Below, piece by piece: positions 7,403-46,182 of a stretch of DNA of 64,000 nt; within the stretch, counting starts at the first letter, position 1, and each line of letters begins with the position of its first letter. Both the position numbers and the translations under genes were made by a program. Source of the DNA: Candidatus Hermodarchaeota archaeon (GTDB taxonomy: Archaea > Asgardarchaeota > Lokiarchaeia > Sigyniarchaeales > SOKP01); assembly GCA_048885525.1 (NCBI GenBank), contig JBHLLP010000011.1:1552-65551 (forward strand). Reading direction: 5' to 3'. Below the pieces are notes generated by a model. That model was not told the DNA's origin and ran no database searches. It saw nothing but the letters and a program-made list of their open reading frames with translations.

Positions 7403-8035
7403 ATGTTAAATCGTTTTGAACTTCTTTTTTCAATATTAGGTGGATGGATAGTTTCTATTTTAATCTTAATTCCGGTGAAATTAAATTCTAGAAAAAGATT
7501 ACCAAATGGTTCAATTCATATTGAGAATGTAAATGAAGATATCATTATTTCTACGGGATACAATTTATTTTTATTAGTAGGAATGGGCATTATCTCATTT
7601 CTGAATTTTTTTGTTGTTTTTATATGTATATTTGATTTCTGGAATTTTCTTTCAGAATATTTTGCGTTTAATTTCCCAAAGTTGATAAACTGGATAGGGA
7701 TAATCGGAATTTGGATACAAGATGGATGGGGTGTGGCAGTTATTTCTTATAATGTTAATTATACTCCAGCCTATAAATCAATGAAATTAAATTATATATT
7801 AGCAACTGGAGGTCCCTATAAATATGTAAGGCATCCCATGTATATAGCAAAAGCAATCTTGGTTATTTTCTTTTTTCTAGCAACAGGAATTTGGCTGTCT
7901 CTTTTTGGAGCTTTATCTTGGTTAGGTTTATCTTCACAAGCTAGTAGAGAAGAGGAAGCTCTTGAAAAAAAATTCGGAAGTGCTTATAAAGATTATTTAA
8001 ATAAAACAGGTCGCTTCTTTCCAAAACTGAAATAA
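7403..8035 (+). CDS. isoprenylcysteine carboxyl methyltransferase (ICMT)/phospholipid methyltransferase family protein
   Basis: Polytopic membrane protein with GGPYKYVRHPMYIA and a C-terminal EEEALEKKFGSAYKDYLNKTGRFFP block. Confidence 0.8.
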   Translation: MLNRFELLFSILGGWIVSILILIPVKLNSRKRLPNGSIHIENVNEDIIISTGYNLFLLVGMGIISFLNFFVVFICIFDFWNFLSEYFAFNFPKLINWIGIIGIWIQDGWGVAVISYNVNYTPAYKSMKLNYILATGGPYKYVRHPMYIAKAILVIFFFLATGIWLSLFGALSWLGLSSQASREEEALEKKFGSAYKDYLNKTGRFFPKLK

Positions 8036-8050
8036 TATAATTATTTAACC

Positions 8051-10072: not shown

Positions 10073-10088
10073 AATGATCCTTATTCTC

Positions 10089-10889: not shown

Positions 10890-11017
10890 AAAATACTATT
10901 TATTTGAGTTTATTAAAAATATTTTCAAACAGACTCAAAAATCATGAAATTAAAAGATTAAATATAAGTACATCTCTATTTTACTATAACAAAATTATAA
11001 TTTTTTAATGATTTAAA

Positions 11018-12736
11018 ATGAGACGATTTGCCAGTATTGATTTTTTACGTGGTATAGCAATTGTTTTGATGATTTTCTTGCACACTATACTCCATGTACT
11101 CGATATTGATGGGTTACTTCTTCAAATGAATGACATTCCTTTAATAAACATAGTAGCACTTATCATTTTACCTTTTTTAGGTGGTTTAGCAGGATTTTTT
11201 TTGATGGTTTCAGCTATAGGGAATATGATTAGTATGTACAGACACCTACAGGCTGGAAGAAATGTAAGGGATTTAGTGATAAGACAAATCATGGGTGGAG
11301 TATTACTTTTAATTTTTGCGATGATCGCTGAGAGCATTTTAGGTATCCATGGTGCGTTTGCAAATTTGACAAAATCATTAAATGATTTATCTGCGTGGAA
11401 TTGGCAAGTTATACTTTATAGAGGATATCACTTTGAAACGATTCATACAATCGCATGGTGTATTATCCTAAATGGTGTTGTACAAGGAATTCTTTCGAGG
11501 AAGGGTGGTTGGACTAATCCTAGAAAACTTATAAAAATATATATTATATTAATTGTAGTTGTCATAGCCCTCACACCATTATTATGGTGGTTAGTAGATT
11601 TGGTTATCCCAGGATATCCATGGGCTATAGATCCTAACACCAATGTAGATGTCCAATATCCTTACCTTGGAATTTCAGAATGGTGGAAATTCATAACTCA
11701 TTTCTTTTTAAATGCAATCGCAGGAAGAGAAGAACCGATATTCCCTTATCTCGCAGTATCATTTATGGGTAGCATCATTGGAATTATTCTGGCGCAAGAT
11801 AGAGAGACAGTAAAAAAAGACTGGTCATTTATCCCTAAAAGAACAATGCAAATAGGATTTATTCTGTTTCTGGTAGGTATAATTGGCCTTATCGTTAATT
11901 TGGTCCTTATAATGGATGAACTTGGTATGACTGCTGCTTTGAATCTTTATAAAGGTTTAGCGTTCCATCGAAACTGGGTTCCAGAAAATCCAGGGATTGC
12001 TAGTACAACATTGCCAATTTTAGGATGGTTATTCCAATTTTTAGCCCTAAATGGAACTGCAATTTGCCTTATAATGGTCGTAGTTCGAGTAGTTGAGTTT
12101 CGAGGCCGTGGAAAAGAATTTGCTGATAAAACAAGATTTTTCCGTCGATTTGGATTTGTTGCTTTTACAGTGTATAATATTCAATGGGTTTATTTCCTAA
12201 TACACTTCATTGTCTCATCGTTTATATATGGTCAACCACAAGCTCCATATTTGAAACTGGATTGGGCAGGTACATTTCTTACAATGGCTATAACCTTCGT
12301 AATATTTCACGGGATATTACTACTTTGGGAAAGAGTAAAATACATTGGAAGCTTAGAATGGACAATGGGCACGATTGCTGCTCAGATCATTCCAGCTCGG
12401 AAAGTAGCTGACCAGAAGTGGTGGCAAACAGGACAACTAAATGTTGAAGAAGCCTTTTATAATGCCGAATGGTTAAATGTTATAGAAAAAGATGAGATCC
12501 GTCATGATCGTCACGCAGATTCAATAATGACGTATAAATTATCATTTTTTGGATTTCTCTTTTTCCCTATTTCATTTATAACATTTCTTATAGCAAGAAA
12601 ATCTGTTCAAACCGAGGGAGAAAATATATATAACAAACGAGCAAAATTGATTTCATTGATAGGAATTATATTCTTCTTAGTTTGGTTAATACTCTCATTA
12701 TTCCTAAGCTTGTCAGATTTAGGGCTCTCTCTTTAA
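11018..12736 (+). CDS. polytopic membrane protein, heparan-alpha-glucosaminide N-acetyltransferase-like (DUF1624) acyltransferase
   Basis: The N-terminus RFASIDFLRGIAIVLMIFLH is the signature start of DUF1624/HGSNAT-type proteins. More than 10 hydrophobic helices. Confidence 0.5.
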   Translation: MRRFASIDFLRGIAIVLMIFLHTILHVLDIDGLLLQMNDIPLINIVALIILPFLGGLAGFFLMVSAIGNMISMYRHLQAGRNVRDLVIRQIMGGVLLLIFAMIAESILGIHGAFANLTKSLNDLSAWNWQVILYRGYHFETIHTIAWCIILNGVVQGILSRKGGWTNPRKLIKIYIILIVVVIALTPLLWWLVDLVIPGYPWAIDPNTNVDVQYPYLGISEWWKFITHFFLNAIAGREEPIFPYLAVSFMGSIIGIILAQDRETVKKDWSFIPKRTMQIGFILFLVGIIGLIVNLVLIMDELGMTAALNLYKGLAFHRNWVPENPGIASTTLPILGWLFQFLALNGTAICLIMVVVRVVEFRGRGKEFADKTRFFRRFGFVAFTVYNIQWVYFLIHFIVSSFIYGQPQAPYLKLDWAGTFLTMAITFVIFHGILLLWERVKYIGSLEWTMGTIAAQIIPARKVADQKWWQTGQLNVEEAFYNAEWLNVIEKDEIRHDRHADSIMTYKLSFFGFLFFPISFITFLIARKSVQTEGENIYNKRAKLISLIGIIFFLVWLILSLFLSLSDLGLSL

Positions 12737-21448: not shown

Positions 21449-24400
21449 ATGGTTATTTTGAGGTTACTTTCCCTTAATAAAATGTATAGAAGAAAGAGTA
21501 TTTCTTTTATAAAAGCAAATAAAAAGAAGTTTTTAGCAATCTCATTAATTTCAATTATCTTATTTCAGGTACCAATAGTAAATATAACTAACGTTATTTC
21601 TGAAGAAATCACAAAACCTGAAAATATAAGATCCTCTATTCCAGTAGAAGATGAAGTAGATCAATTTTCGAATTCAACAGAGGAAAAATCAAATATTGAA
21701 AGTATAGTACCGCCTGCTCCGCCTGAAGATATTGTAATCCAATTTTCAAATTCACCCGATGTGGTTTTTGATATTAATTATTATTTTGCTCAAGAAAAAG
21801 TGCAAATAAATATAAGATTAAGGAATAATCTTACTAACCCAATATCTCTTCTTAATTTATGGATACAAGTGAATAAAAGCGATCCAGATGAAAGAATATT
21901 ATTATCTGCTACATTTATTAGTGAGGAGTCTGAAAAATTATCTTTATCTACATTTGATACTTCTGAATCGATGATCTTTCATATAAAATTATATGAAGGA
22001 GAAATAATAGAAGTAAACGAAGAATTTGATGAAGTATTTTTAACTTGGGTTGATCCAGATGGGATTTTTGCTCAGTATAATCCAAATTTACTCTATAATG
22101 ATATTGCAGATGATATTGAGGCTTATTTTGAATATTCAATAGATACAGAAGAACCACAACTTTTTCCACTTATAGAACGTCAATTTTATCAATTTAGAAC
22201 ATTAATGTTTTGTGTTGATTTTAGGATCACTAATTTAATGTCAACTGATTTAGATGTTTTTAATTTTACTTACGTAAAAATCAAAGATTTCACCTCTGAA
22301 CAGTACTTGGATCTTAGTATTCAATCTCCATTTTTATCAAGTTCAGAAATTTCCAATATTGAATTAAGCTATTCTGTATTTAATGACAGAATTGAATATT
22401 ACATAAGTTTTAGCCAAAATGTTATTCTAAGTCCAAATGAATGGTTTAAAATTTTAACTAAATGGGCAGGAGTGCCAGGTGAATCTACAATTGGGCGTGA
22501 TCTAATTATATGGAACACTGGTGACGATGACCCATTTAATTTTGGTTATCCTTTTTATGATATAGGAGATCCATTTTATCCAGTTCTATCACCAGCAGAA
22601 CCAATTGTGGATATTGATTATGATGGTGACGGACTTAGGAATAATGTTGAAATTAGTAATGGATTAAACCCTTATGTGCAAGAACCATGGTTAACTTGGG
22701 AAACCTTAAGAAGTAACCATTATGTTGCCGCACAATATTCATCGGGTCTTGAACTAGGAGGAAAAATAGGGATAGTAATTCCCTCCGATTTCTCTAATAA
22801 TGAGCTAATTATGGATGTCCAATCTCTAGGGGTGCAGGATACTCTAAAGAACATAACTGTTAATAATGAACTTATTTATAATGATATTACCTCTATAGGG
22901 AGATTCAGTCTTGCAAACCCCGCGAATGATTACGTCTATAAAATAAAATTAAGAGTTTCTCATGATGTATATGGAAATATGGTTGCATCAACTTTTTCTA
23001 TAAAATTTTTGATAGGGAATACTGAGATTATTGATATGAGTTCATTTTTTCAACTTGATTCTGATGGGGATGGTTTAATAGATGATTTAGAGGAAAGTGC
23101 CTATGTTGAAGTCCCTGACGTTGATAATGATGGATTAATTGATGGAAGCGATGTCATGCCTTTTACTAAAATTGAATGTGCACCAAATGAAATCTATAAA
23201 CTAAATTTTCCAATATATGATACTAATTCAGAAATTGGAGTAAATATTCAAATTAAACCAACTATAGATGACTATACTGAAACTTTCGATTACCGCGGAA
23301 ATGAACTTTATATATTGCCAGGTTTGCGGATTTATAGTTTAAATGTTGGAGGAGATTATTTACCTGATAATTGTTTTTCAATAGATGATGGTTTAACTGG
23401 GCTTATTAGATTAGTACCTCTTAATAGTTTTGGAAATGAGAAACCATATACCTGGTCTAAGACGTTAATATATGAATCTGCAAATTTAGCAAAAAATGAT
23501 AACCAAATTACATTAAGATTTCAATTATCATGGCTTATTTTTGAGCATGATCCAATAAAAATGGAATCAAAACTGTTGCATATATATGATAACACAAATC
23601 AATATACAATTCAAGGAATTTCAATTACAGAAAATCACCCAACAAATATTGTATTAGGTCTGGTTGATGATGGTAGTGATTATCGAAACACAGGAAAGAA
23701 TGCATTATTAGCAACGTATGATCAAGTATCAAATATTGCTTATGATCCAAATAATTACCCATCAATGGAGTTATTTCCAGCTTCTTGTAATGATCTTAGT
23801 GATGTAAATAATACTAGAGATGAATTACGTAATTATATTTTAGAACAGAAAAATCTAGACATTGCAACTACTAATTTTATTTATCTTACCTATGGATATA
23901 CAATGACCTATAATTTTAAATTATTAATTGATGAATTTGGAAATATTCAAGAAAAATATTATACACCAACAGAAATCAATAATTTCTATTCTCTCCCTGA
24001 AACTTCATTTTTTGGCATTATTACAACCCAACTTATAAGAGATGATTATATTGAATTCGTTAAACAATTTACATATGCTTACAAAAATAAGACTGTTGAA
24101 TCTTTACTTTTCAATATTCAATTTTCAAAATGTAAATATGTTGCTTCTGGATCTGATGAAATTTATTGTTTTGAGGGCATAAAAGAAGAGAGTAATGTAT
24201 GGATCTTTTGGTTTGATTTTAAAGAAAAAGAAAATTTGATAAAAATTCGTAATGCAGAAAGTTTTCAATTTACTTGGAATTTACCTATTTTTAGCTTATC
24301 ATTATCTGGACCAACTAACGAGACTTTGATTGAATTTACAGGACTCTATGACGATATACCTATATTAGGAGATATGTTTAATACATATCTTAAAAAGTAT

Positions 24401-27301
24401 GAAGGTGATAAAGCTATAGGGCAAATACCTGTTAAACTGGCTGAAATTGGAGTATTCATAGGCGCTATTTTAGAAGCTATGGGAAAGTTTGTAGATTGGG
24501 GAGGGCGTGTAGGGTTATTATCAAAAGGTATGGGAGTTTTTAGTTTAATAGTTGGTGGATTGAGATTAGGTTATGGAATTGATCTAATTAATCAAGGAGC
24601 ATATAAAACAGGGATGGCTGAAGTGAATCGAGCGGTAATGTCGATTTATTCAGGTATTTTAGCATTTTGTCCTGCTAATCCCGTGACTTTAGTCCTTACT
24701 GCAATAGTTCTTGTTGTAACGCTGGTAGATTGGATTTGTAGCCTATTTGGGTATGATATGTGGGGTGAGTTATTGGAGTGGTGTGGCCTTGAAGATGCAA
24801 ACCCGGCGTATGAAATCACTGACTATTATTTAAGTTATGATACAGCTTTATTAAAACATCAAGGAAGTTTTAGGGTAGGAGATCAGGTTTCATTTCATCT
24901 TGCATATAAGAATACTGGAAATACAAAAATGTGGCTTAGAGTTAAAATAGGTGCTGGATACCTAGGTGAGTGGGGAGAGGAAACGGAAATGTATACCCGA
25001 GGGGGAAAATATTTTAAAAATGAAGACCAGACAACGGTTACCGATACTTTTGAAGTAGCGTATCCCATGACAGTAATAAAGATTTACACCTCATTAAATT
25101 GGTACTATGATGAGTCAGGTGCGGTTATCGTTGTTGCATATCCTCCATTTATTATATACTATGATCCAGATCCAGTTTGGGGAGGACCTTATTCTAATGT
25201 TGAAGAGGTTACGTTTGATATGCCCGTAATGCCTCAAAACATAAATGAGTTTATATATCTTCTTAGGTCTGGTTTATGGTTCCCAGATTGGATAGCCAGT
25301 CCACCAGAAACCAGTGTTACCCCTATTAAAGATGAAATTATCCCAATTTTTTCTGAGGATTTAGCATATTGGATTAGAATCACGAATAGATTATCCAGTG
25401 AACAAACATTTGATCTTATTGGCTCAAATGAAGAAATGTGGGACTATACTTTTTATAAAAGAAATTTTCTAGGTTATTACACTATTCCAACAACTGAAAT
25501 TACACTTGATCCCTGGGAACAGAAAAAGATCAAAGTTTGGATAACCCCCACTTCAATAAATCCACTCCGACCTGGCAATCATACTTCAATTGTGAGAGTT
25601 CAGAGTCAAGAAGCATCATTCATCAGATCTAATGTTAATTTGGATTATGAAATAATTCCACTTATAGGTTTTAAAGTTGATTTTGACCCGATCTTAATTG
25701 AAGGGTTGGATTTAGGAGGAGATGATTATTTGGCATATTTTATAAATGTTACAAACACAGGGAATTTACATGATAATTATACAGTTGAAATTTTGAATTT
25801 AGATATTGATCTTTATGACCTATATAAATCTGCATTATCCGCTTATCCCTTGAGAATGGATTCATCGTTAATTGTATTTTATATTCCATGGGGTAAAATA
25901 GTATTTCCTGGAGAAATATATTTCAATATTAAAGTAAGTTCACATGCAGATCCTAACCTGATAAAGATGTTTAATTGCATCCTTGATATTCAAGAATACC
26001 ATAGAATGAGCTTTTTCGTTGAGGAAGCCAATTTAACATTAACAGATAGTGATATTTTTGATTATAATTTGCATCTCACTAATTTAGGAAATGTTGAAGT
26101 ACCTTTTAATATATCATATACTAATGTGAGTTTTGCCAATACTTTCATCCCGCAGAGTTCCTATATAATGATTCCTGGTCAATATGAAAATTTTAATTTA
26201 ACTATGATACCATTCGAATTAGGTACTGATTCATTTACCATAACAGCAACAACTCCTTATATTTCCAAAACTATTGAAGCGTATATTACAGTACTTGATG
26301 ATGATATATTACCTCCGTGGTTTGAAGCTGTAATAATCAAAGATAATTGTTTCTTCCTTAATATTTCATTTTTAGCATTTGATGAAGTGGAATGGCATAG
26401 TGATGATATTGGAATAGCAAATATATCTATTTATGTAGATGATGTGCTTATTCATAATTATTTACCCACTCCCTCTGAAACAGAATTCAACTTTACTTTT
26501 ACAAATGATTGGATAATGGAATACGGAAACCATACAATTCGTATAGAAATAACTGATGCTGATAATGATAGGCCGAATGACGCTTTAACTACCATCTTAG
26601 AAGCCACTTTTGAAGTTACTCCTGATGAAATGATGGAATATATTCTATGGGAACTTAGTGAACTTGAGGATTATATAGAAGATGTACTCCCATTTTGCTT
26701 TAATAGACCACTTATTAATCATCTTCACAGAGCTCAATGTAAAGTTTGGTGGGCTTTATATTTCTATAATTTTGGATATGATTCAAAGGCAGTACTTTTA
26801 GATATGTTAGCTAAAGCTAGTTTGGAGTTTTATGATATGTTTATATATGTAGTATTAAAACATCATAGAATTTCTGAAGAAGTTGGAGATTATATTTTAG
26901 CTCAAGTTCATAAAATACGTGATCATTTATCCCTTACTATGGGAGCAATAGTTGGAACTGAAACGGCTCTAGAAATTGCTAATATAATCGTAGAGATTTC
27001 TCAATTCGTGGATAACTTCTCCATATACCATAATTTCTGTTTATATATGGCAATTCAACACTATATTAGATGCGCTATTGGTGAATTAGAGTTTGTTCTT
27101 TATTTAATGAGTAAAGGTTATCTACCAGAATGCTTTATTCTTGAACATATTTCTCACGCAATTTTTAAATTAGAATTAACTCAAAAGAAAATTGAGTGCC
27201 TAGTTAAATGTGGCAAAATATCTGAAGAATGTGGTTTATTGCTTATCGAAAAGATCGAATATTTTATTAGTAAAATTAGTAATTTAGAGAATTTTTTATA
27301 G
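21449..27301 (+). CDS. giant (1950-aa) cell-surface protein with a central TM cluster
   Basis: N-terminal signal anchor (KKFLAISLISIILFQVPIV). DxDxDG Ca-binding loops (DIDYDGDGLRNN, DSDGDGLIDD, DVDNDGLIDG). Gly-rich hydrophobic cluster at about aa 990-1110. CARDB/NEW3-like beta-sandwich signatures (VTNTGNLHDNYTVEI, LHLTNLGNVEVPF, PGNHTSIVRVQS). Helical tail of about 220 aa. Many N-x-S/T sequons. Alternative start at ATG 21482. Confidence 0.7.
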   Translation: MVILRLLSLNKMYRRKSISFIKANKKKFLAISLISIILFQVPIVNITNVISEEITKPENIRSSIPVEDEVDQFSNSTEEKSNIESIVPPAPPEDIVIQFSNSPDVVFDINYYFAQEKVQINIRLRNNLTNPISLLNLWIQVNKSDPDERILLSATFISEESEKLSLSTFDTSESMIFHIKLYEGEIIEVNEEFDEVFLTWVDPDGIFAQYNPNLLYNDIADDIEAYFEYSIDTEEPQLFPLIERQFYQFRTLMFCVDFRITNLMSTDLDVFNFTYVKIKDFTSEQYLDLSIQSPFLSSSEISNIELSYSVFNDRIEYYISFSQNVILSPNEWFKILTKWAGVPGESTIGRDLIIWNTGDDDPFNFGYPFYDIGDPFYPVLSPAEPIVDIDYDGDGLRNNVEISNGLNPYVQEPWLTWETLRSNHYVAAQYSSGLELGGKIGIVIPSDFSNNELIMDVQSLGVQDTLKNITVNNELIYNDITSIGRFSLANPANDYVYKIKLRVSHDVYGNMVASTFSIKFLIGNTEIIDMSSFFQLDSDGDGLIDDLEESAYVEVPDVDNDGLIDGSDVMPFTKIECAPNEIYKLNFPIYDTNSEIGVNIQIKPTIDDYTETFDYRGNELYILPGLRIYSLNVGGDYLPDNCFSIDDGLTGLIRLVPLNSFGNEKPYTWSKTLIYESANLAKNDNQITLRFQLSWLIFEHDPIKMESKLLHIYDNTNQYTIQGISITENHPTNIVLGLVDDGSDYRNTGKNALLATYDQVSNIAYDPNNYPSMELFPASCNDLSDVNNTRDELRNYILEQKNLDIATTNFIYLTYGYTMTYNFKLLIDEFGNIQEKYYTPTEINNFYSLPETSFFGIITTQLIRDDYIEFVKQFTYAYKNKTVESLLFNIQFSKCKYVASGSDEIYCFEGIKEESNVWIFWFDFKEKENLIKIRNAESFQFTWNLPIFSLSLSGPTNETLIEFTGLYDDIPILGDMFNTYLKKYEGDKAIGQIPVKLAEIGVFIGAILEAMGKFVDWGGRVGLLSKGMGVFSLIVGGLRLGYGIDLINQGAYKTGMAEVNRAVMSIYSGILAFCPANPVTLVLTAIVLVVTLVDWICSLFGYDMWGELLEWCGLEDANPAYEITDYYLSYDTALLKHQGSFRVGDQVSFHLAYKNTGNTKMWLRVKIGAGYLGEWGEETEMYTRGGKYFKNEDQTTVTDTFEVAYPMTVIKIYTSLNWYYDESGAVIVVAYPPFIIYYDPDPVWGGPYSNVEEVTFDMPVMPQNINEFIYLLRSGLWFPDWIASPPETSVTPIKDEIIPIFSEDLAYWIRITNRLSSEQTFDLIGSNEEMWDYTFYKRNFLGYYTIPTTEITLDPWEQKKIKVWITPTSINPLRPGNHTSIVRVQSQEASFIRSNVNLDYEIIPLIGFKVDFDPILIEGLDLGGDDYLAYFINVTNTGNLHDNYTVEILNLDIDLYDLYKSALSAYPLRMDSSLIVFYIPWGKIVFPGEIYFNIKVSSHADPNLIKMFNCILDIQEYHRMSFFVEEANLTLTDSDIFDYNLHLTNLGNVEVPFNISYTNVSFANTFIPQSSYIMIPGQYENFNLTMIPFELGTDSFTITATTPYISKTIEAYITVLDDDILPPWFEAVIIKDNCFFLNISFLAFDEVEWHSDDIGIANISIYVDDVLIHNYLPTPSETEFNFTFTNDWIMEYGNHTIRIEITDADNDRPNDALTTILEATFEVTPDEMMEYILWELSELEDYIEDVLPFCFNRPLINHLHRAQCKVWWALYFYNFGYDSKAVLLDMLAKASLEFYDMFIYVVLKHHRISEEVGDYILAQVHKIRDHLSLTMGAIVGTETALEIANIIVEISQFVDNFSIYHNFCLYMAIQHYIRCAIGELEFVLYLMSKGYLPECFILEHISHAIFKLELTQKKIECLVKCGKISEECGLLLIEKIEYFISKISNLENFL

Positions 27302-28902: not shown

Positions 28903-29796
28903 ATGAAATTGCTACGTACCGCAGAAAAGAGATTTAAGAACCTTCCAGATTTTCCATTTAAACCTAATTATTTAGATGTTGATGGAATTAGAATTCATTA
29001 TATAGATGAGGGATCGAAAAATACCGAAGTCATCCTTCTCATGCACGGAGAACCCTCATGGTCTTTTTTATATAGACATATGATCCCTATTTTAGTCCAA
29101 GCGGGTTATAGGACTGTTGCCCCTGATTTAGTTGGATTTGGACGATCCGATAAACCAACTGAACAAAGTGATCATTCTTACCGTAGACATGTTGAGTGGA
29201 TAACAAAAGTAGTCATTATGCTCGATCTCAAAAATATTACATTATTTTGCCAAGATTGGGGTTCTTTAATAGGGTTAAGAGTTGCTATTGAAAATCAAGA
29301 ACGTTTTAGTAGGATTGTACTATCAAATGGAGGATTACCCACAGGAGAACAGAAATTAAGTAAGGCTTTTTTAGAATGGCAACATTTTTCTAAGAATACT
29401 ACTAAATTTTACGTCGGTAGGATTATACAGGGAGCTACAATTACTAAATTGCCTAGAAATGTGATCAAAGCATATGATGCACCGTTTCCAGGTAAAAAAT
29501 ACAAAGCGGGGGCTAGAATTATGCCTTCATTAGTTCCGACTACAAAAGATGATCCAGAGCATATTAAGAATAAAAATGCGTGGGAACAGTTTTTTCAATG
29601 GAAGAAACCATTTTTAACTGCTTTCTCTGATAGTGATCCAATTACTAGAGGAGGAGATAAATTTTGGCAGGAAAAAGTTCCAGGCGCTCAAGGGCAAAAT
29701 CATACTACTATAAAAAATGCTGGACATTTTGTTCAAGAAGATAAAGGTCCTGAACTAGCTAATCTAATAATACAATTTATTAAAAAGAACACTTAA
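28903..29796 (+). CDS. haloalkane dehalogenase (HLD-I, DhmA/DhlA-like alpha/beta hydrolase)
   Basis: RIHYIDEG, LMHGEPSWSFLYRHMIP, nucleophile elbow CQDWGSLIGL, acid FSDSDPIT, catalytic His in NAGHFVQED. Confidence 0.85.
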   Translation: MKLLRTAEKRFKNLPDFPFKPNYLDVDGIRIHYIDEGSKNTEVILLMHGEPSWSFLYRHMIPILVQAGYRTVAPDLVGFGRSDKPTEQSDHSYRRHVEWITKVVIMLDLKNITLFCQDWGSLIGLRVAIENQERFSRIVLSNGGLPTGEQKLSKAFLEWQHFSKNTTKFYVGRIIQGATITKLPRNVIKAYDAPFPGKKYKAGARIMPSLVPTTKDDPEHIKNKNAWEQFFQWKKPFLTAFSDSDPITRGGDKFWQEKVPGAQGQNHTTIKNAGHFVQEDKGPELANLIIQFIKKNT

Positions 29797-29815: not shown

Positions 29816-31144
29816 TTATTTCAATTTTCTTTTTCTTATAGCCTCTCTTTTCCTTCTAATTCTTTCATGGGCATAAAGTTTTGGATGATATTTAATGTCT
29901 AAATAACCTATAATCAAAAGTATTAATGCTAAAAACACATTAGTAAATCCAATCAAATGGTAAGAATCTAAAAATATGAAAGCAATTGTAATTCCACCCA
30001 TTTGTAAAAAACTATAAGCAATTAAAGGCGCTATTATTTGTGAAACTGCTTGAAAATTAGTTGACCATCCACTTAAAACACCTTGTTGATCAAGTCTTAC
30101 TGCTTTGGTCATATTAGTAGTAATAAGAGGTCTCATAAAAGCAACTACAAATGAATAAGGAAGAATAAATACAAAAACCATCCATAATTCGTATAAATAG
30201 GGATAGAACAAGAAGACAATTATAAAAAGAATGAATGTCGTAATTAAAAGTCGCTTTTCTCCTAACTTTTTAATCAATGGTTTTATAAGAATACCACCAT
30301 AGATCATTACAGCAAATCCCGCTACGGCCATAACTAATCCAGTTGTGGAAGGTCCCGCATTGTATCTTTTTAATATTACTAATGCTGCACTTGAAGTAAA
30401 TATAAAACTTATAAGAGAAAATATGAATGTTTGGATCATCCGAATAATTACTTCCTTATTCCAAATACTTTTCTTTTCTCCTGGATTGGTTTGAGTTAAA
30501 AGAAGCTGAGCTTTAATTTCAATTCTCCTTTCATTGGGCATACTCTCAACTATAATTGTTAGTGTCATAATCATCAAAACAATAGTTAAACCACTAGCTA
30601 AATATGGTGGAAACCGCCAATGGATTGAACCTAAAAAGCCTCCAACTAACGGACCTAAAGTCATGCCTAACGTATATCCAACCATTATCTTTCCCATATG
30701 GGTTGCTCTTGTCTGCGGAGTTGTTATGTCAGTAATATAAGCACGAATAACAGGAATTTGACCTCCAAAGAAACCATCTATAATCCGAGCTATAAGAATT
30801 ACTTCGATTGAATTTGATATGGCTAATATTAAGAAAGATATACCTGTACCAGCTTGAGAAATTAATAAAATTGGTTTACGTCCATATTTATCACTTAATT
30901 TACCCCAAATTGGAATAAAAAGCAAGGCAGCAAGTGCATTTGAAGATATTAAAACTCCAATCATAAAATCTGCTGCTCCAAGATCTGTTGCAATACTTGG
31001 TAATAACGGAAGTACCATAGTATAACCAAAAATATCAAGCAAAATGCTAAGGATAATAGTAAACATAGCGCGCTTCTGATTTATCTTAAATTTCTTTAAA
31101 TATTCTATATGCTCTTCTTTATCATGGAAATTTTGGATGGACAT
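29816..31144 (-). CDS. MFS transporter (drug:H+ antiporter-like)
   Basis: About 12 TM helices, with MFS motif A GKLSDKYGRKPILL between TM2 and TM3. Confidence 0.85.
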   Translation of the reverse strand: MSIQNFHDKEEHIEYLKKFKINQKRAMFTIILSILLDIFGYTMVLPLLPSIATDLGAADFMIGVLISSNALAALLFIPIWGKLSDKYGRKPILLISQAGTGISFLILAISNSIEVILIARIIDGFFGGQIPVIRAYITDITTPQTRATHMGKIMVGYTLGMTLGPLVGGFLGSIHWRFPPYLASGLTIVLMIMTLTIIVESMPNERRIEIKAQLLLTQTNPGEKKSIWNKEVIIRMIQTFIFSLISFIFTSSAALVILKRYNAGPSTTGLVMAVAGFAVMIYGGILIKPLIKKLGEKRLLITTFILFIIVFLFYPYLYELWMVFVFILPYSFVVAFMRPLITTNMTKAVRLDQQGVLSGWSTNFQAVSQIIAPLIAYSFLQMGGITIAFIFLDSYHLIGFTNVFLALILLIIGYLDIKYHPKLYAHERIRRKREAIRKRKLK

Positions 31145-31333: not shown

Positions 31334-32155
31334 TTATAGAAAGAAATCAAGATATAATTTGGAATTAGGATCAACAGAATATTTCTTTAAATCAGTTATC
31401 CCATGTTCCAATAAGATTTCTTCATCTATGAAAAAGTTGCCTGTACACGTTTTACTTGGCCTAGTTAAAATTAAATAAGCTGCATCTGCAACAATTTCTG
31501 GTTTTCTTGAATGTTTTACTGCAGATTCTCCACCTAATAAATTTTTCACAGCTGCTGTAGCTATAGATGTTTTAGGCCATAAGGCATTAACTGCAATTCT
31601 ATCTTTCCTAAATTCTTCTGCCATCCCCAGAACGCACATACTCATTCCATATTTTGCCATAGTATAGGGTAAATTATTTTTAAACCATTTTGAATCCATA
31701 TTTAGAGGAGGTGATAAATTCAATATATGAGGATTTTCTGCTTTTTTCAGAAAGGGAATACACAATTTTGAACATAAAAAGGTTCCACGTACATTAACAG
31801 AAAACATGAGATCATATCTCTTCATTTTGATTTCTAAAGTTGGAGATAAATTTATCGCACTGGCATTATTAATAAGTACATCTATACCCCCAAATCTATC
31901 CACTGTTGCTTCAATAGCAGATTGAATTTGATCTTCAAATCTTATATCAGCAATGCATGGAATTGCATTACCTCCAGTAGATTCAATATCTTCTACAGCA
32001 GTATATACTGTTCCAGGTAATTTTGGATGAGGTTCTTTAGTCTTAGCAACTACAGCAATATTAGCTCCATCCATAGCTGCTCGCAAAGCTATAGCTTTTC
32101 CTATCCCTCTACTAGCACCTGTAATGAAAATTGTTTTTCCTTTTAGAGTGGTCAT
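31334..32155 (-). CDS. SDR family oxidoreductase (HSDL2-like)
   Basis: LKGKTIFITGASRGIGKAIALRAA...VAKT..PHPKLPGTVYT is the HSDL2-type N-terminus. NNAS and YTMAKYG (YxxxK) are also present. Confidence 0.85.
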   Translation of the reverse strand: MTTLKGKTIFITGASRGIGKAIALRAAMDGANIAVVAKTKEPHPKLPGTVYTAVEDIESTGGNAIPCIADIRFEDQIQSAIEATVDRFGGIDVLINNASAINLSPTLEIKMKRYDLMFSVNVRGTFLCSKLCIPFLKKAENPHILNLSPPLNMDSKWFKNNLPYTMAKYGMSMCVLGMAEEFRKDRIAVNALWPKTSIATAAVKNLLGGESAVKHSRKPEIVADAAYLILTRPSKTCTGNFFIDEEILLEHGITDLKKYSVDPNSKLYLDFFL

Positions 32156-32285
32156 TTCTAAAAACTTATTTAATGAATTAAAATTTTAAAATATATTATA
32201 ATTTTTAATTTAAAACAATTTTAAATAATTTATATTAATATTTCATAAAAAAAAAGTTTAAACGTCATTCTTAAATATTTTAGAA

Positions 32286-32756
32286 TTGATAATGTCAAAT
32301 CTAAATCCTGATAAATTGAATGTAATTAGTAATCACTCTGTGGAATCTAATAATTTAAAATTACCACGTAAATATACTTTAACTCATTCTGATTCAACGG
32401 GTGATCTATTTTTGACTATAAGCAGTGAGTATGACTTAAAGCAAATATCAAACATTTATACTCGCTTTATGAGAGATGAAGTATTAGCTGAATGGAAAAA
32501 AAAAAATGAGCAGTTTGAATTGCATCTCTACGTTCATGTGAGCGGAGGGTTTGTATTTGGATGGGCAAGTATGAGAAACAGAATATTTCGTAGACATTTG
32601 CCACTCGTTTTTCAAACAATTCGATATGGAGATAAGAAATTATTTGAGAAATTTCCGAAACTTAAAGAAGCACAAATTTTTGTCCATTTTCAATCAAAAA
32701 ATAAGAAATACAATAAGATTGAAAATTTTGGGCAAATAAAAGAGATTCAATATTAA
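32286..32756 (+). CDS. Stay-Green (SGR) family protein, Mg-dechelatase homolog
   Basis: Four blocks match plant SGR as I recall it. LPRKYTLTHSDSTGDLFLTI matches LPRTYTLTHSDITAKLTLAI. RDEVLAEWKK matches RDEVVAEWKK. LHLYVHVSGG matches LHVHCHISGG. LPLVFQTIRYGDKKLFEKFPKLKEAQIFVHFQS matches LPVVLKAFVHGDGNLLNNYPELQEALVWVYFHS. The likely start is ATG 32292. Confidence 0.8.
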   Translation: MIMSNLNPDKLNVISNHSVESNNLKLPRKYTLTHSDSTGDLFLTISSEYDLKQISNIYTRFMRDEVLAEWKKKNEQFELHLYVHVSGGFVFGWASMRNRIFRRHLPLVFQTIRYGDKKLFEKFPKLKEAQIFVHFQSKNKKYNKIENFGQIKEIQY

Positions 32757-36070: not shown

Positions 36071-36541
36071 GTGATATATAACAACCCAGAGGAACACATG
36101 TCTGAATATGAAGAAACAATTAATAAATTATCAGATCAGATAAAAGACTTATTTTCTAAAATTCATTTTTATCAAGCTCTTGTTGCGGAAAAAGAACATC
36201 AAATATCCCAGTTAGCTAAAGAAAATCAAAAATTGCTCGCTAAAATTCAAGAATTAACATATCTTTCAACTCCAGCTCCTCCTCCAAGTCAGCAATCTTA
36301 TACACCTCCTCCACCCCCAAATAAACACTCTTATACTCCACCAGTTTTTCCATCAAGACAACCCTCCATATCTGAATCCATTGAAGATTCTCGGATTAAT
36401 AAAAGAGTATGTCCCAACTGTGGTGCTATGGGTTTTGCGATAAGAGAAGTAGATGATAAATCAAAGGTAATTAGTTATACTCCAAGACGTATGTATGCTA
36501 AAAAGAAAGCATGTACTAAGTGTAGATATGAATGGAGCTAG
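36071..36541 (+). CDS. hypothetical coiled-coil / Pro-rich / C-terminal zinc-ribbon protein
   Basis: GTG start with AGAGGAG 8 nt upstream. Heptad-like N-terminus (QISQLAKENQKLLAKIQEL). Duplicated PPPxxxSYTPP segment. CPNCG...CTKC ribbon. Confidence 0.5.
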   Translation: MIYNNPEEHMSEYEETINKLSDQIKDLFSKIHFYQALVAEKEHQISQLAKENQKLLAKIQELTYLSTPAPPPSQQSYTPPPPPNKHSYTPPVFPSRQPSISESIEDSRINKRVCPNCGAMGFAIREVDDKSKVISYTPRRMYAKKKACTKCRYEWS

Positions 36542-41194: not shown

Positions 41195-43045
41195 TTATTG
41201 AGAATATTGAGAGTTATCAGTTTCTACAGTAATTTCTCCATTAATTTCAAGTAATTTTGAACCACAATCCTCACAATAAACGGGTATCCCGCCCAATATT
41301 TTTCTAACGAGCTCTACTGGCAAGTTTTCTCGACATTCAGGACAATTTTGTGGACTAATCGAATTTTCAAATTCAGACATAATAGAAGGAGTCATATCCT
41401 CGTCCTCAGCAAATATATCCACTTTCAAAACTGAAAATTGCTCATCTTTGTTTCCATTTAGAGTTAATAGTAATCCAACAGAATGTTTGCTAAAAGTACC
41501 TTCAGCATAACCTTTGATAAATCCATGGAATTTTCCTTCTAATTCTTCTTTTTCAGAATCAATGATTGCAAAATTTTTCCTTTTTAAAAGATTAGATAAT
41601 TTTTGGTACAATTGAATGGCATTATATGGAATTGTAAATTCTTGTCCAACTTTTTTGAATGTAAGAAGATCTTTAGTGAGATTTTCAAAATCTTCATTTG
41701 ATACTATCTTTGGTCTTAATAGTCCACATATCATTCGGATCTCATGTGGTTCTACATTGATGGTATCGATCTGATCTTTTTCATTAATAAAATTAACTAC
41801 AGCATGAACAGTTCCTTTGATACAATCTTTTTTTGGCTTAAAAACGAAAGTGGGGCTTACAAATCCTCCACCTTTTGAAATTTTGTGAAATTTTGCACTG
41901 TCTGGAGAAAATTGTGGATGTCCATCTACACGTGATAAGATTAAACTTTCCTCTGGATATGAAAGTATATTTATATTGATATTAGTAATGTTAAAGTTTC
42001 TGTTATTAATAACTTTGATCTTGAAGAGATATTCACCTCCCTCAATCTGTCCTCCCCTAAGCACTCGTATATCTGGAGATTTCACATCCGGTTCAGCTGG
42101 AATTGGGGTTGAACTAGAAACACTTTCGCCTTGGGTTGTGTTTGAAGGTTCAATAATTTGTTTAGTTTTGAGAGTTTGCGATTCTAAAGCAAATTTTTTA
42201 CTTGGCATTTCGATAAGATCGCTCTTATCACCTTTAACTAATTTGAAAAGAGAAATTTTATTTTTTGAAGCTGCTACCAAAAGTACGTTTTCTTTTTGTT
42301 CTGAAGAGATTGTATAAGTATCAAGACACTGAATTTTTACCCCTAATTTATGATTGCCAATAATCTCTTCATTTAAATTAATAGCATTTAAAAATCCGTT
42401 TTTATCACCTACAATTAAGATGGGTTGGTTATATATATTACAAAATGTTAGGCATATCGGTTGATACTGTAAGTCAAAAACCAATTCTGAATCTATATCA
42501 TTAATAACATTAAGAATTTTCCCTGATTTAAGTAAAACAAAGATTTTTTTTGTGATATCATTAGATAAATTACCGATAGTGCAATCCATGACTGGTTCAG
42601 GGGCTTTAAATTCTAAAAATTTATTTCCTTTATTATCTAGTCCAAATATTCGTTGATTTTCTAAACCAACTATAATTTCATCTCTACTATCGTCTCTTAA
42701 ATCGCCAGTTTCCATACAAATTACTGGGGAATTTAGATTTGTTGACCAGATTGGATTTCCTTTTTTATCCATTACATAGATATTTCCATCCAACGCTCCT
42801 GATATTAATTCAATATTATCTTTTTTACTTACAGATGCTATTTCGAAGCAGGTTATATTCGAAGCGAATTCAGTGTTAAAAACTTCATTACCTTTTAGAT
42901 CAAAAGCTTTCATTTCTGCATTGAATGAACATCCAATTATTTCAGGTTCTGAGTCCCCTAATAGATTTGCGATTATACAAGAATAGACAGATTTTTGAAA
43001 TTGACGTACCCAAAGTAATTGTAGTTTAATGTATTGCAATGTCAT
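41195..43045 (-). CDS. cytoplasmic beta-propeller (FG-GAP/PQQ-like blades) - S/T/P linker - beta-sandwich - alpha/beta domain - C-terminal zinc ribbon protein
   Basis: No signal peptide. Blade-like repeats are present (GDSEPEIIGCS..AFDLKGNEVF; ALDGNIYVMDKKGNPIWS; GDLRDDSRDEIIVGLENQRIFGLDNKGNKF; ILIVGDKNGFLNAINL). The linker is TTQGESVSSSTPIPAEPDVKSPD. IRVLRGGQIEGGEYLFKIKVINN marks a beta-sandwich. The ribbon is CPECREN...YCEDCGSKL. Confidence 0.6.
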   Translation of the reverse strand: MTLQYIKLQLLWVRQFQKSVYSCIIANLLGDSEPEIIGCSFNAEMKAFDLKGNEVFNTEFASNITCFEIASVSKKDNIELISGALDGNIYVMDKKGNPIWSTNLNSPVICMETGDLRDDSRDEIIVGLENQRIFGLDNKGNKFLEFKAPEPVMDCTIGNLSNDITKKIFVLLKSGKILNVINDIDSELVFDLQYQPICLTFCNIYNQPILIVGDKNGFLNAINLNEEIIGNHKLGVKIQCLDTYTISSEQKENVLLVAASKNKISLFKLVKGDKSDLIEMPSKKFALESQTLKTKQIIEPSNTTQGESVSSSTPIPAEPDVKSPDIRVLRGGQIEGGEYLFKIKVINNRNFNITNININILSYPEESLILSRVDGHPQFSPDSAKFHKISKGGGFVSPTFVFKPKKDCIKGTVHAVVNFINEKDQIDTINVEPHEIRMICGLLRPKIVSNEDFENLTKDLLTFKKVGQEFTIPYNAIQLYQKLSNLLKRKNFAIIDSEKEELEGKFHGFIKGYAEGTFSKHSVGLLLTLNGNKDEQFSVLKVDIFAEDEDMTPSIMSEFENSISPQNCPECRENLPVELVRKILGGIPVYCEDCGSKLLEINGEITVETDNSQYSQ

Positions 43046-43201
43046 TTTAAATCCTTATCTGAAAAATTCTATTTATGTTCAATATAATATAAATTGACTT
43101 AATCATAAAAATAAATCTAAAAGAATTATTCGATAAAAATAATATCCTATCACAAAAAGTAATAAAAAAAAAGAACTTAGAGGAATCTCTGTATTTTCTT
43201 A

Positions 43202-43666
43202 TCATTCTGGCTTTTCTTCTACATCTTCTTTGACTTTCTTTACTAATTTTTTAAAAGCTTGTGTTAAACTACCTATTTCAGGATCTTGTTCTTCTAATTC
43301 TTTATCGAAATCTGTATCAATCTCTTGAAAAGATAGAGTTTTGAGATCGTGGGTGCATAGCTTTAAAGCAATATTTGTTAATTTATGAATTGGATTTACT
43401 ATTGAATCGGAGAGTTTCAAACCAATAAAAAGACTTATTACGATAATTTGCCATAGTGATATAAAGATTATTGCTAATTCTATCTCAAGAGTTTCAGTAA
43501 TTTTAGCTTGATCCTCAGGTGTAGCACCAACAATACTGTTACCAATAACCTCATTAAATATTGCGGCAATAATAGCAATACTCCCCAACGCTATTACACA
43601 AACTATAACGAAACTCAAAAGAATTTCTTGTCTAACCCCAAATTTTCTTTTTTTTTGTTGAACCAT
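43202..43666 (-). CDS. two-TM protein with a divergent HAMP-like cytoplasmic domain
   Basis: TM1, a short external loop (GATPEDQAKITETLE) and TM2. Then IVNPIHKLTNIALKL...DPEIGSLTQAFKKLVKKV (P-helix...EIGxLxxxF, HAMP-like). The ATG is 2 nt after the upstream stop, with GAGGAGGG in the upstream gene's last codons. Confidence 0.55.
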   Translation of the reverse strand: MVQQKKRKFGVRQEILLSFVIVCVIALGSIAIIAAIFNEVIGNSIVGATPEDQAKITETLEIELAIIFISLWQIIVISLFIGLKLSDSIVNPIHKLTNIALKLCTHDLKTLSFQEIDTDFDKELEEQDPEIGSLTQAFKKLVKKVKEDVEEKPE

Positions 43667-43668
43667 CT

Positions 43669-45393
43669 TTATCCCTCCTCTGGTACAAAACCTTCTATTT
43701 CTGATGACACCATTATTTCCTTAACCTTTGTAAAAGCATCAGCGATTCTCTTTGAAACGTTTTTAGCAGAATAAATTGTGATATATTTACCAAGTGGAGT
43801 TGCATTAACAATTTCTGTCATTTTTCGATGAACGCGTTTTAGTTCGGGTCCAACTCCAATTAAAATAATATTGAGGGGAGGCTCAACTTTTTTTATATAA
43901 TTTGCAACTTTGCGAGAATTATACTTTTTACTTTGATTATCTTCTCCATCTGTTAGAGTTACAATCCATTTCTGTCGTTCTTGAGTTTTTTGTTCTGAAA
44001 TTGGTGGTGCTCCCAATAATATATCTATTGCATTAGCTATTGCATCATATAAACTAGTTTGATAAGGTAAAAAGTCCATTTTTTTAAATATATTAGTAAT
44101 TTGCGATACATTACCTTTTTTCTCTGTTAATTTGAGATGGTTATGTACAATAGAATCAAAACCAATAATTGCAACTCTATCTCCAATGTTTATTGTTTCA
44201 TTGAAGACTCCCAAAGCTCCTGTTCGAGCTGCCCCCATTTTTCCCCACATGCCCATGCTCCCAGATTGATCAATTACAAAAACCACATCTTTTTTACGAA
44301 CCAGTACATCATCTACTTTTGAAAGTTCAAGCTCTGCTTTATGATGAAGAGTTGTATTATCCTGACTTTCATATAATTGAACCATAACTTCAAGGACATT
44401 TTTCATTAAAGGATAATTCCCAAGATTTTCTGCTAATTTCAAAGCATTTTTAAAATGATCCTCTGCAATCCCTGGATTGTTTTTTAATATATTTAGCCTC
44501 CCTAGTTGAAATTCATCTTCTGATAATCCTACATTATTTTCCCATTTACTATCAAGTCTAAATGCCTCATCAAGTTGTTCTTGAGCGAGATTCAATTCAT
44601 TTTTTAACATGTGAAGTACTCCTATATTTCTTTTTCTTGAAGCAATTCCTAACTTATCTCCCAACTCATTGTCAAGTTTAAGAGCTTTGTTAAAATCGTC
44701 CATTGCTTCTTGCCATCGTTCTTCTGAAAGAAAAAGAAGAGCACGATTGTTATATCTGGCACTTAATGCTCCAATATCCTCCTGTTCTTCACCAATTTTA
44801 ATCGCCTTATTATAACTTTTCCTTGCTTTATCAATATCACCCCAATTCCTGTAAATATTTCCAAGATTATTTAAACACATGCTCTCTCCATGAAGATTTT
44901 TTGTTGTTTGAAATAATTCTAAAGCAGCATTATAGTTTCTGAAAGCAAGCATCAAATTACCTTGATAATAACTTTTATTCCCTAAACGCATTGTAACCAA
45001 TAAACTCTGAAAAGATTGGGCAAGTACACCAATTTCATTTCTTCTCATTCTTCCACTCATAGGAATTTCTTGGGTTAAATCACCTTCAGATATTTGTTCT
45101 ATTGAATGTGTTAGCTCTATAATTGGTTTGGTTATTCTTCTGGAGATACCATTTACAGCAAAAAATATGATAATACCGGTTATAGCTGATCCAATAATGA
45201 TGGTTATGATTAAAGGGCTTTTTAAAGCTTCAAGTGAACTGTACCCTAATCCTATAAAATAGTCAATATTTGTTAAGAGTTGATACGCTAAGAAAATTGT
45301 TAAAAGTATGAAGGGGATTGAAATACAGGTAATCATAACAATGAAGAGCCGTTGTCGTAATGTTCTTCTTTTTCTTATTTTTTTAACTTCCAT
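43669..45393 (-). CDS. TM-HAMP-TPR-vWA (intact MIDAS) membrane protein
   Basis: Two TM helices. A canonical HAMP (ITKPIIELTHSIEQISEGDLTQEIP...RNEIGVLAQSFQSLL). About 6-7 TPR units (e.g. AFRNYNAALELFQ, ARKSYNKAIKI, AMDDFNKALKL, AEDHFKNALKLA). A vWA domain with VVFVIDQSGSMG (DxSxS), QTSLYDA (Thr) and TLTDGEDN (Asp). Confidence 0.75.
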   Translation of the reverse strand: MEVKKIRKRRTLRQRLFIVMITCISIPFILLTIFLAYQLLTNIDYFIGLGYSSLEALKSPLIITIIIGSAITGIIIFFAVNGISRRITKPIIELTHSIEQISEGDLTQEIPMSGRMRRNEIGVLAQSFQSLLVTMRLGNKSYYQGNLMLAFRNYNAALELFQTTKNLHGESMCLNNLGNIYRNWGDIDKARKSYNKAIKIGEEQEDIGALSARYNNRALLFLSEERWQEAMDDFNKALKLDNELGDKLGIASRKRNIGVLHMLKNELNLAQEQLDEAFRLDSKWENNVGLSEDEFQLGRLNILKNNPGIAEDHFKNALKLAENLGNYPLMKNVLEVMVQLYESQDNTTLHHKAELELSKVDDVLVRKKDVVFVIDQSGSMGMWGKMGAARTGALGVFNETINIGDRVAIIGFDSIVHNHLKLTEKKGNVSQITNIFKKMDFLPYQTSLYDAIANAIDILLGAPPISEQKTQERQKWIVTLTDGEDNQSKKYNSRKVANYIKKVEPPLNIILIGVGPELKRVHRKMTEIVNATPLGKYITIYSAKNVSKRIADAFTKVKEIMVSSEIEGFVPEEG

Positions 45394-45426
45394 TTTATTT
45401 TTTCACTCTCTTATTTCTTATAAAAA

Positions 45427-46182
45427 TTAAACTCCCTTGTCTATTCCTTCATATATTAGAAAGATCGATGTAAAAATAGAAGCTTTAACAATAGCTAAAC
45501 CAATCAATGGCATATCAGAAACACCTGCATCAATGATTCCAAAAAGAGAAACAAACATTATACCTAATCCCATTGAATATCTCCTCCATTTAGCGGTTTT
45601 ATCCTCGAGTTTTGACCCAGATTGAAGAATAGCCGGTCCTAAGATTACCATCATAATAACCAGCACCACCCCCAATAATGCCAATGCCAAACCTTTAATC
45701 CCTGTAGATGGTAAACCTCCACCTATTTCCTCGGATGGTTTCCAGGAAGTATATGTTGAAGGATTGGAATAAATTAAAATAGCGAAAATTATACTCACTA
45801 TTCCTACTATGCCTGTAATTGGGATTTTATAACGACCTTCTTTAAACAAATCTGAAGCTATATATGCCCAAATGGTTGCACCTAAAGCAGGACCCCAAGC
45901 ATATCCAAGAACGCCGATATTTGGATCACCATCCGGATACCCTAATGGAGGAAAACCGAAAATCATTAATAAAAAACTTGCAGAGACTCCAAACCAAGCG
46001 TGAAAAACGGAGATTAAACCAATTCCACTTAATATTAATCTTTTTTTAACTTTTATATCAGTTGCTTTTCTAGCATGCTTAAAAATGAGGATAAAAGCTA
46101 ATATATAACCAGCGGCAATAATTTCAAGACCTGTGAGTCCATTTATTATATCAATATTTGGAAGAACCATATATGTTAACAC
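45427..46182 (-). CDS. polytopic (about 7-TM) hypothetical membrane protein
   Basis: 251 aa with about seven hydrophobic helices and no recognisable motif. Its stop lies 33 nt upstream of the HAMP-TPR-vWA gene start, on the same strand. Confidence 0.5.
   Translation of the reverse strand: MLTYMVLPNIDIINGLTGLEIIAAGYILAFILIFKHARKATDIKVKKRLILSGIGLISVFHAWFGVSASFLLMIFGFPPLGYPDGDPNIGVLGYAWGPALGATIWAYIASDLFKEGRYKIPITGIVGIVSIIFAILIYSNPSTYTSWKPSEEIGGGLPSTGIKGLALALLGVVLVIMMVILGPAILQSGSKLEDKTAKWRRYSMGLGIMFVSLFGIIDAGVSDMPLIGLAIVKASIFTSIFLIYEGIDKGV

Follow-up and report, generated by a model that had tools for sequence, protein, structure and literature searches.

A Staygreen-family Mg-dechelatase homologue in an Asgard archaeon without a tetrapyrrole pathway, and its association with light genes across Asgard archaea

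The stretch of DNA analysed here (the window: 64,000 nucleotides of contig JBHLLP010000011.1, assembly GCA_048885525.1) carries a gene for a homologue of Staygreen (SGR), the Mg-dechelatase of plants. The gene is intact and kept by selection, and its product belongs to the Staygreen family, with the fold and the essential residues of AbSGR-h, a prokaryotic dechelatase from Anaerolineae (PDB 7Y5Y). It is hosted by a Lokiarchaeial Asgard archaeon of the Promethearchaeota. Across Asgard archaea, SGR is tied by co-occurrence and by adjacency to genes for heliorhodopsin, DNA photolyase and type-1 rhodopsin (below, the light genes), which favours exogenous chlorophyll in a context of light stress as the setting in which the protein acts. 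With moderate confidence, we suggest that its role would be the light-linked removal of Mg from scavenged exogenous chlorophyll, detoxifying a light-activated poison.

The open reading frame at 32286-32756 on the forward strand is real, and its translation holds LPRKYTLTHSDSTGDL, RDEVLAEWKK, LHLYVHVSGG, LPLVFQTIRYGDKKLF and PKLKEAQIFVHFQS, the blocks in which an initial annotation of this DNA had recognised a plant-like SGR. That assignment stood up to a Pfam profile search, in which PF12638 matched at E 1.5e-51 and 174.6 bits (cut-off 27) over profile positions 1-146 of 147, with the domain beginning at residue 1; NCBIfam has no model for the family. The annotated length of 156 aa describes the open reading frame correctly and includes 2 extra residues from an alternative TTG start at 32286. 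Because SGR homologues are almost all 154 aa long and a 154-aa product is also called in two NCBI assemblies, translation most likely begins with the ATG at 32292. A profile search found one SGR copy in the host genome, and comparison with 15 orthologues in the genus (Nei-Gojobori) gave dN/dS values of 0.13-0.25, indicating purifying selection. Window SGR is genuine and an ordinary representative of a known family, from a lineage in which the family has already been annotated: SGR homologues in archaea have already been published, NCBI names these homologues 'staygreen family protein', and one Sigynarchaeales genome with SGR appears in a 2026 preprint.

By sequence, window SGR matches 7Y5Y at E 5e-48 over residues 3-153. 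A single-sequence AlphaFold model (pLDDT 46.9) was dropped and replaced by an AlphaFold (AF2) model based on a 38-sequence alignment (pLDDT 83.2), for which Foldseek returned 7y5y_A with a TM-score of 0.93, a root-mean-square deviation of 1.5 A, E 4e-21 and 48% identity; the second-best PDB structure match stood at E 0.012. Counted from the ATG, residue numbers coincide with those of AbSGR-h, whose catalytic loop is an incomplete MIDAS-like motif (PMC8531759). Mutagenesis of AbSGR-h found activity abolished and the protein still soluble in D34N and D62N, activity weakened in H32A and T29A, and solubility dependent on R26, Y28, T29 and D114 (PMC8531759). All of these positions (R26, Y28, T29, H32, D34, D62, D114) are kept in window SGR, as are T31, R61, E63 and R95, and the conserved His/Asp positions to which the initial annotation had pointed (H32, D34, D62) are retained on alignment both to AbSGR-h and to family representatives. 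Columns of the catalytic loop do not vary among 38 archaeal and Chloroflexota homologues and are 96-99% conserved across 164 family representatives, while R26, Y28, T29 and D114 are invariant in an alignment of 22 diverse prokaryotic homologues that includes window SGR. In vitro, AbSGR-h dechelates chlorophyll (Chl) a, chlorophyllide a, protochlorophyllide a and Chl b/c (PMC11006732). The two proteins are further alike in their short length (154 aa in the window, 161 aa in AbSGR-h), in having no transit peptide and in belonging to non-phototrophs. They differ in that window SGR is archaeal and sits in an Asgard clade apart from AbSGR-h, and in that its neighbours, a short-chain dehydrogenase (SDR), a methyltransferase and a major facilitator superfamily (MFS) transporter, are not described for AbSGR-h.

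A phylogeny with plant, bacterial and archaeal sequences, as the initial annotation had proposed, was built as a quick maximum-likelihood tree of 164 sequences, most of them unnamed metagenome proteins, with plant, green-algal and Clostridia clades labelled. The Asgard proteins form two to three clades that follow taxonomy, one of which contains window SGR (SH-aLRT 96). One further clade comprises Clostridia/Lachnospiraceae, AbSGR-h groups among other short prokaryotic sequences, and a single clade of 73 rows, lying among prokaryotic sequences, unites plant and green-algal proteins. Since the tree does not resolve its backbone, no donor of eukaryotic SGR is proposed. Window SGR shares with plant SGR1, SGR2 and SGRL the Pfam domain and the YTLTH(S/C)D and RDE motifs. 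The plant proteins, by contrast, are 250-310 aa long with an N-terminal extension, and window SGR lies outside the plant/green-alga clade, to which its Asgard clade is not sister. In plants, moreover, the substrate is the organism's own chlorophyll, and Mg removal feeds the chloroplast PAO/phyllobilin pathway, whose partners PAO and chlorophyllase were not found in the host genome.

Close SGR homologues come from metagenome-assembled genomes named Promethearchaeota, Promethearchaeia or Lokiarchaeota, Promethearchaeota being placed by NCBI taxonomy in the Asgard kingdom Promethearchaeati. The remark of the initial annotation that no phototrophy genes are present holds for the window and extends to the whole host assembly (3.58 Mb, 99.3% complete). 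Profile searches of this genome, in which positive controls worked, found no CobN/Mg-chelatase H, no DPOR BchL above cut-off, no BchM, and neither a type II nor a type I reaction centre. ALAD and ferrochelatase were not found in the genome either, PAO gave no match (PF08417), and no chlorophyllase was detected, with PF07224 reaching at best 18.8 bits, below cut-off; RCCR was not searched for. With ALAD, chelatases and ferrochelatase missing from a genome of this completeness, the host makes no tetrapyrrole itself, and any tetrapyrrole substrate of SGR therefore comes from outside the cell. Among the candidate substrates put forward earlier, scavenged chlorophyll derivatives are thus favoured and an endogenous Mg or metal tetrapyrrole is unlikely; the accompanying statement that the native substrate is unknown still holds.

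To place SGR in its genomic context, 379 Asgard genomes of at least 70% completeness were searched for SGR, heliorhodopsin, photolyase and type-1 rhodopsin. SGR is present in 106 of these genomes and heliorhodopsin in 128, and they occur together in 80 where 35.8 are expected (odds ratio 14), counts that are inflated by shared ancestry and habitat and do not account for kinship. Heliorhodopsin is carried by 80/106 SGR-positive and by 48/273 SGR-negative genomes; when any of the three light genes is counted, the figures are 96/106 and 86/273, respectively. The same tendency appears among genera, 10/12 of the SGR-positive having heliorhodopsin against 19/71 of the SGR-negative (p 3e-4), and the association holds within three genera: g12, g47 and the host genus, where 35 genomes have both genes, 3 have SGR only, 3 heliorhodopsin only and 11 neither. 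Two discordant cases in the census are pseudogene fragments, of SGR in genome G179 and of heliorhodopsin in G215. Fragments of SGR with internal stops occur in heliorhodopsin-less genomes (G179:C1:1569031-1569264, G056:C1:90359-90781), and a heliorhodopsin fragment with internal stops occurs in an SGR-less genome (G215:C51:18936-19142); this looks like joint decay of the pair.

Physical linkage points in the same direction. Heliorhodopsin is no farther than 12 kb from SGR in 31 genomes, photolyase in 16 and type-1 rhodopsin in 6. Taken together, 40/106 genomes have a light gene at that distance or less, a lower bound given that many contigs are short, where chance would give ~0.7% per genome. 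Nine pairs have starts within ~1 kb of each other, and at least six are co-directional with spacers of 60-210 bp. Mapped on the SGR gene tree, heliorhodopsin adjacency involves at least four state changes; it does not go back to a single inherited layout. For adjacency to any light gene the minimum is six. When the surroundings (8 kb on either side) of SGR were compared in 37 Asgard loci, the recurrent neighbours identified via Pfam were heliorhodopsin (PF18761, E 1e-97), DNA photolyase and a bacteriorhodopsin-like type-1 rhodopsin, together with an AhpC/TSA peroxiredoxin, a PNPOx-like protein and a fasciclin protein. Family f18 has 0/19 genomes with heliorhodopsin although SGR occurs there, and its loci (L053-L056, L062) show type-1 rhodopsin, fasciclin protein, Bcp-type peroxiredoxin and SGR in that order, with photolyase convergent. 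Outside the Asgard archaea, heliorhodopsin adjoins SGR in three Anaerolineae loci (L110, L129, L142), and another six Chloroflexota loci have photolyase at up to 8 kb from SGR. In the literature searched, we found no publication that pairs heliorhodopsin with staygreen or dechelatase, and the main study of heliorhodopsin neighbourhoods (Bulzu et al. 2021) has no mention of Staygreen (PMC8612252).

Two further observations concern these loci. An ATP10-like protein of 152 aa (weak PF05176, E 6e-8) repeatedly stands between or beside heliorhodopsin and SGR (L083, L094, L095, L097, L103, L105). A contig labelled Nanopelagicaceae, Actinomycetota (L102) shows the Asgard arrangement of heliorhodopsin, SGR, photolyase and ATP10-like gene, with an SGR 58% identical to that of the window; either mis-binning of an Asgard contig or transfer of the island may account for it.

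The host genome carries both SGR and heliorhodopsin. In this genome the light sensor is separated from the SGR locus: heliorhodopsin is encoded on another contig (C27:17720-18478), and the window's contig has no heliorhodopsin, photolyase or rhodopsin gene. This is the only heliorhodopsin in the genome, and genome searches found neither photolyase nor type-1 rhodopsin. By Pfam, the island around it (L147, C27:10000-28000, 7706-11841) encodes an AhpC/TSA-like fragment of 93 aa, an alpha/beta hydrolase, a PNPOx-like protein and UvdE, a UV-damage endonuclease; the host therefore senses light and repairs UV damage. In the sister species G209 and G199, SGR is clustered with light genes. Locus L038 has a leftward SDR gene followed by rightward genes for SGR, methyltransferase, FtsX, ABC transporter and heliorhodopsin, and L039 has a leftward SDR gene followed by rightward SGR, methyltransferase and heliorhodopsin. 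The window matches the sister-species order as far as the ABC transporter, and the heliorhodopsin is missing there. Heliorhodopsin neighbourhoods with photolyase, UvdE, carotenoid and redox genes have been described by Bulzu et al. 2021 (PMC8612252). The host heliorhodopsin, with UvdE and peroxiredoxin-like genes, resembles them, as do the single clusters of heliorhodopsin, photolyase and SGR in other Asgard genomes; window SGR differs in being physically apart from heliorhodopsin.

The initial annotation had also called SGR a stand-alone gene next to a generic methyltransferase. The neighbour was correctly described, being a class-I enzyme dependent on S-adenosylmethionine (SAM), whereas the stand-alone status is refuted, both by the light-gene association across Asgard archaea and by a unit conserved in this genus, in which an HSDL2-like SDR is divergent from SGR and the methyltransferase follows (Table 1). 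The SDR scores 449 bits with NF006133 (cut-off 250) and matches the human HSDL2 structure 3kvo at E 1.5e-103. It lies ~135 bp upstream of SGR on the opposite strand in 10/11 loci of the genus, and many further loci also have it upstream and divergent. We rejected it as a general SGR partner: the subfamily is restricted to the window's order and adjoins SGR in this genus only, so its adjacency is genus-level synteny and not phylum-wide linkage. The order SGR then methyltransferase recurs in the host genus and in g12. No NCBIfam model reached its cut-off with the methyltransferase. Of all proteins in the genome it is the top match to the BchM/ChlM model, yet its 50-51 bits fall well short of the cut-off of 158.9, and other methyltransferase models match it at least equally well; a relationship to BchM was rejected. 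The two-transmembrane protein that comes next belongs to a family (F11) found in 7 loci of the genus. On the other side of SGR, the MFS transporter reaches 173.9 bits with the Tet(A)/(B)/(C) model (cut-off 475), a match at family level only; it has a single paralogue elsewhere in the genome, and transporters related to it stand no more than 8 kb from SGR in three genera (g1, g12 and g47) as well as in four Chloroflexota loci.

The divergent intergenic region between SDR and SGR holds a conserved block with a TATA-like TTTATATTAATA ~60 nt upstream of the SGR ATG and a palindrome GTTTAAAC. The block is kept in 10 congeneric loci despite near-saturated synonymous sites (dS up to 1.6), and a position weight matrix derived from it scored 51.8 at SGR and at most 18.2 elsewhere in a scan of the whole genome. 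It is the probable SGR promoter. The region upstream of heliorhodopsin scores -9 with the same matrix, which scores only at the SGR promoter, and the scan thus gave no evidence of an operator common to a light regulon. Rfam found no RNA family within the window.

Table 1. Features at and around SGR in the window (positions are those of the window).
Feature	Coordinates	Strand	Basis or remark
SGR-family (Staygreen) Mg-dechelatase homologue, 154 aa	32292..32756	+	PF12638, 7y5y match, NCBI gene call
Catalytic loop codons R26-K-Y28-T29-L-T31-H32-S33-D34-S-T36	32367..32399	+	Residue-for-residue match to AbSGR-h
Codons R61-D62-E63 (D62, second essential aspartate)	32472..32480	+	Columns invariant in 38-homologue alignment
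Conserved 45-nt block in SDR-SGR divergent intergenic region (probable SGR promoter)	32219..32263	+	Conserved across 10 congeneric loci
HSDL2-like short-chain dehydrogenase (PRK08278 subfamily)	31334..32155	-	NF006133, 3kvo; divergent from SGR
Class-I SAM-dependent methyltransferase, 200 aa	32869..33471	+	Methyltransf_25/11 E 1e-22; directly downstream of SGR
Two-transmembrane protein, 81 aa	33507..33752	+	No Pfam/NCBIfam match; follows methyltransferase in close relatives
DHA1-type MFS efflux transporter (Tet(A)/Bcr-like)	29816..31144	-	MFS_1 E 1e-61; 1.1 kb from SGR

Several other features were seen along the way. The closed chromosome of genome G180 has two SDR-SGR-methyltransferase units ~2.6 Mb apart (C1:596973 and 3184683; L069, L081), and its second SGR match has one TAA stop. 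Within the window, an alpha/beta hydrolase at 28903-29796 scores 449 bits with the PRK00870 haloalkane dehalogenase subfamily model (cut-off 265), is unusual for an Asgard sediment archaeon and shows synteny limited to the closest relatives. In a 156-aa protein at 36071-36541, a linker rich in proline joins a coiled coil at the N-terminus to a CxxC...CxxC zinc ribbon at the C-terminus; it has no convincing Pfam family and is conserved in 9 loci surrounding SGR. The 1950-aa open reading frame at 21449-27301 has a sub-threshold Big_7 as its sole Pfam match; NCBI assemblies, too, annotate it as a gene. At 41195-46182, a protein with seven transmembrane segments and no Pfam family adjoins HAMP-TPR-vWA and beta-propeller/BBS-like proteins; it had no match in the heliorhodopsin or type-1 rhodopsin searches.

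How such an enzyme might serve a non-phototroph can be sketched as follows. Soluble SGR would bind Mg-chlorins (chlorophyll a, chlorophyllide and relatives) that come from phototroph detritus and have partitioned into the host membrane, and H32, D34 and D62 would swap the central Mg2+ for two protons. Removal of Mg would begin a defence against light stress in which a photosensitiser is cleared, and SGR would have been gained and lost together with heliorhodopsin across Asgard archaea. More speculatively, the pheo-pigment product might be modified by the HSDL2-like SDR and the SAM methyltransferase, expelled by the Tet(A)-like MFS exporter, or both. Mammalian ABCG2/BCRP exports dietary pheophorbide a, which offers an analogy: there, too, a non-phototroph expels a chlorophyll-derived photosensitiser, and a drug-type MFS exporter recurs beside SGR. 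ABCG2 is, however, an ABC transporter and the window protein an MFS transporter, whose role is suggested by analogy only. A wider claim we put forward only tentatively: that the SGR dechelatases of non-phototrophic archaea and bacteria in general provide the enzymes for a light-stress programme associated with heliorhodopsin and directed against environmental chlorophyll as phototoxin. In it, heliorhodopsin would sense the light, this signal would be coupled to Mg removal from scavenged chlorophyll, and the product would then be modified or exported.

A number of observations weigh against detoxification of scavenged chlorophyll as the role of SGR. That the window protein dechelates Mg is itself predicted, from family, fold and residues. 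Window SGR adjoins no light gene, the genome-wide matrix scan found no promoter motif common to SGR and the heliorhodopsin island, and the SDR neighbour reflects synteny within a genus. The census counts carry the inflation noted above, and in 10/106 SGR-positive Asgard genomes all three light genes are missing. No light genes stand near SGR in the Bathyarchaeia or in most Dehalococcoidia loci, and family members are found in dark anaerobes too, among them Clostridium saccharobutylicum and Lachnospiraceae. Mg removal alone does not end photosensitisation, since pheophytin and pheophorbide act as photosensitisers as well, and the known downstream enzymes of chlorophyll catabolism, PAO and chlorophyllase, are those that the searches of the host genome failed to find.

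The most serious competitor, possible though behind detoxification in our estimate, is that the native job of SGR is some other chemistry, for example metal removal from or insertion into another planar ligand, or the binding of a hydrophobic cofactor, and that chlorophyll dechelation is a side activity recruited later by plants. The title of a 2019 paper by Obata et al. is said to carry this reading. Activity and specificity vary considerably among homologues, and their physiological relevance is described as unknown (PMC8531759). The strict dark anaerobes (Clostridium, Lachnospiraceae) and the Bathyarchaeia without nearby light genes fit such a view, as do the partners in the genus, a lipid-type SDR and a generic methyltransferase, which are not pigment enzymes. 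Yet the chlorin-binding and catalytic surface defined in AbSGR-h is wholly invariant in window SGR, the host produces no tetrapyrrole of its own, and the strong link to light genes suits a photosensitiser better than a generic metabolite as substrate.

It is improbable that SGR works chiefly as an accessory protein bound to the photoreceptor, in the manner reported for other partners of heliorhodopsin, and not as an enzyme in its own right. Co-directional pairs of heliorhodopsin followed by SGR, with spacers of 60-170 bp, in several genera and the loss of both together within genera would suit a binding partner, and heliorhodopsins have been argued to be sensory switches tied to oxidative-stress genes (Bulzu 2021, PMC8612252). 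The genes are nonetheless unlinked in the host and in ~60% of SGR-positive genomes, family f18 keeps SGR where heliorhodopsin is absent, and a pure binding role would not need the strict conservation of catalytic residues. Slightly less probable again is nutritional salvage, in which scavenged chlorophyll, once opened by Mg removal, would supply tetrapyrrole, Mg, phytol or carbon. The host, having no ALAD, is a tetrapyrrole auxotroph, AbSGR-h also accepts protochlorophyllide (PMC11006732), and the 2026 preprint deals with prokaryotic chlorophyll a degradation and includes one Sigynarchaeales genome with the full predicted enzyme set. The host genome, however, lacks PAO, chlorophyllase and a CobN-type chelatase, and it has no ferrochelatase for re-metalation of a porphyrin; salvage of chlorophyll to haem was rejected on this ground. 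The genes that neighbour SGR, moreover, serve light repair and redox defence and not catabolism. That SGR is a turnover gene of a phototroph, or lies on a contaminating phototroph contig, has next to no probability: the family name alone favours it, and it is refuted by the 99.3%-complete genome without reaction centre, Mg-chelatase, DPOR or BchM and by the recurrence of the same locus and neighbours in dozens of Promethearchaeota assemblies.

SGR homologues of non-phototrophs were described in 2019 and their physiological role has been open since, as has that of heliorhodopsin since 2018. A conserved dechelatase in a tetrapyrrole auxotroph means that the substrate must be external, and the phylum-wide tie to light genes makes the native role of the SGR family testable. 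The finding also adds to the picture of many Asgard archaea as living within reach of light. If the wider claim of a heliorhodopsin-associated programme is correct, it would provide a native function for the orphan prokaryotic SGR homologues and for at least some heliorhodopsins, the plant senescence enzyme would descend from a photoprotective detoxification enzyme, and environmental chlorophyll would be a significant phototoxin for the microbes of sediments and mats.

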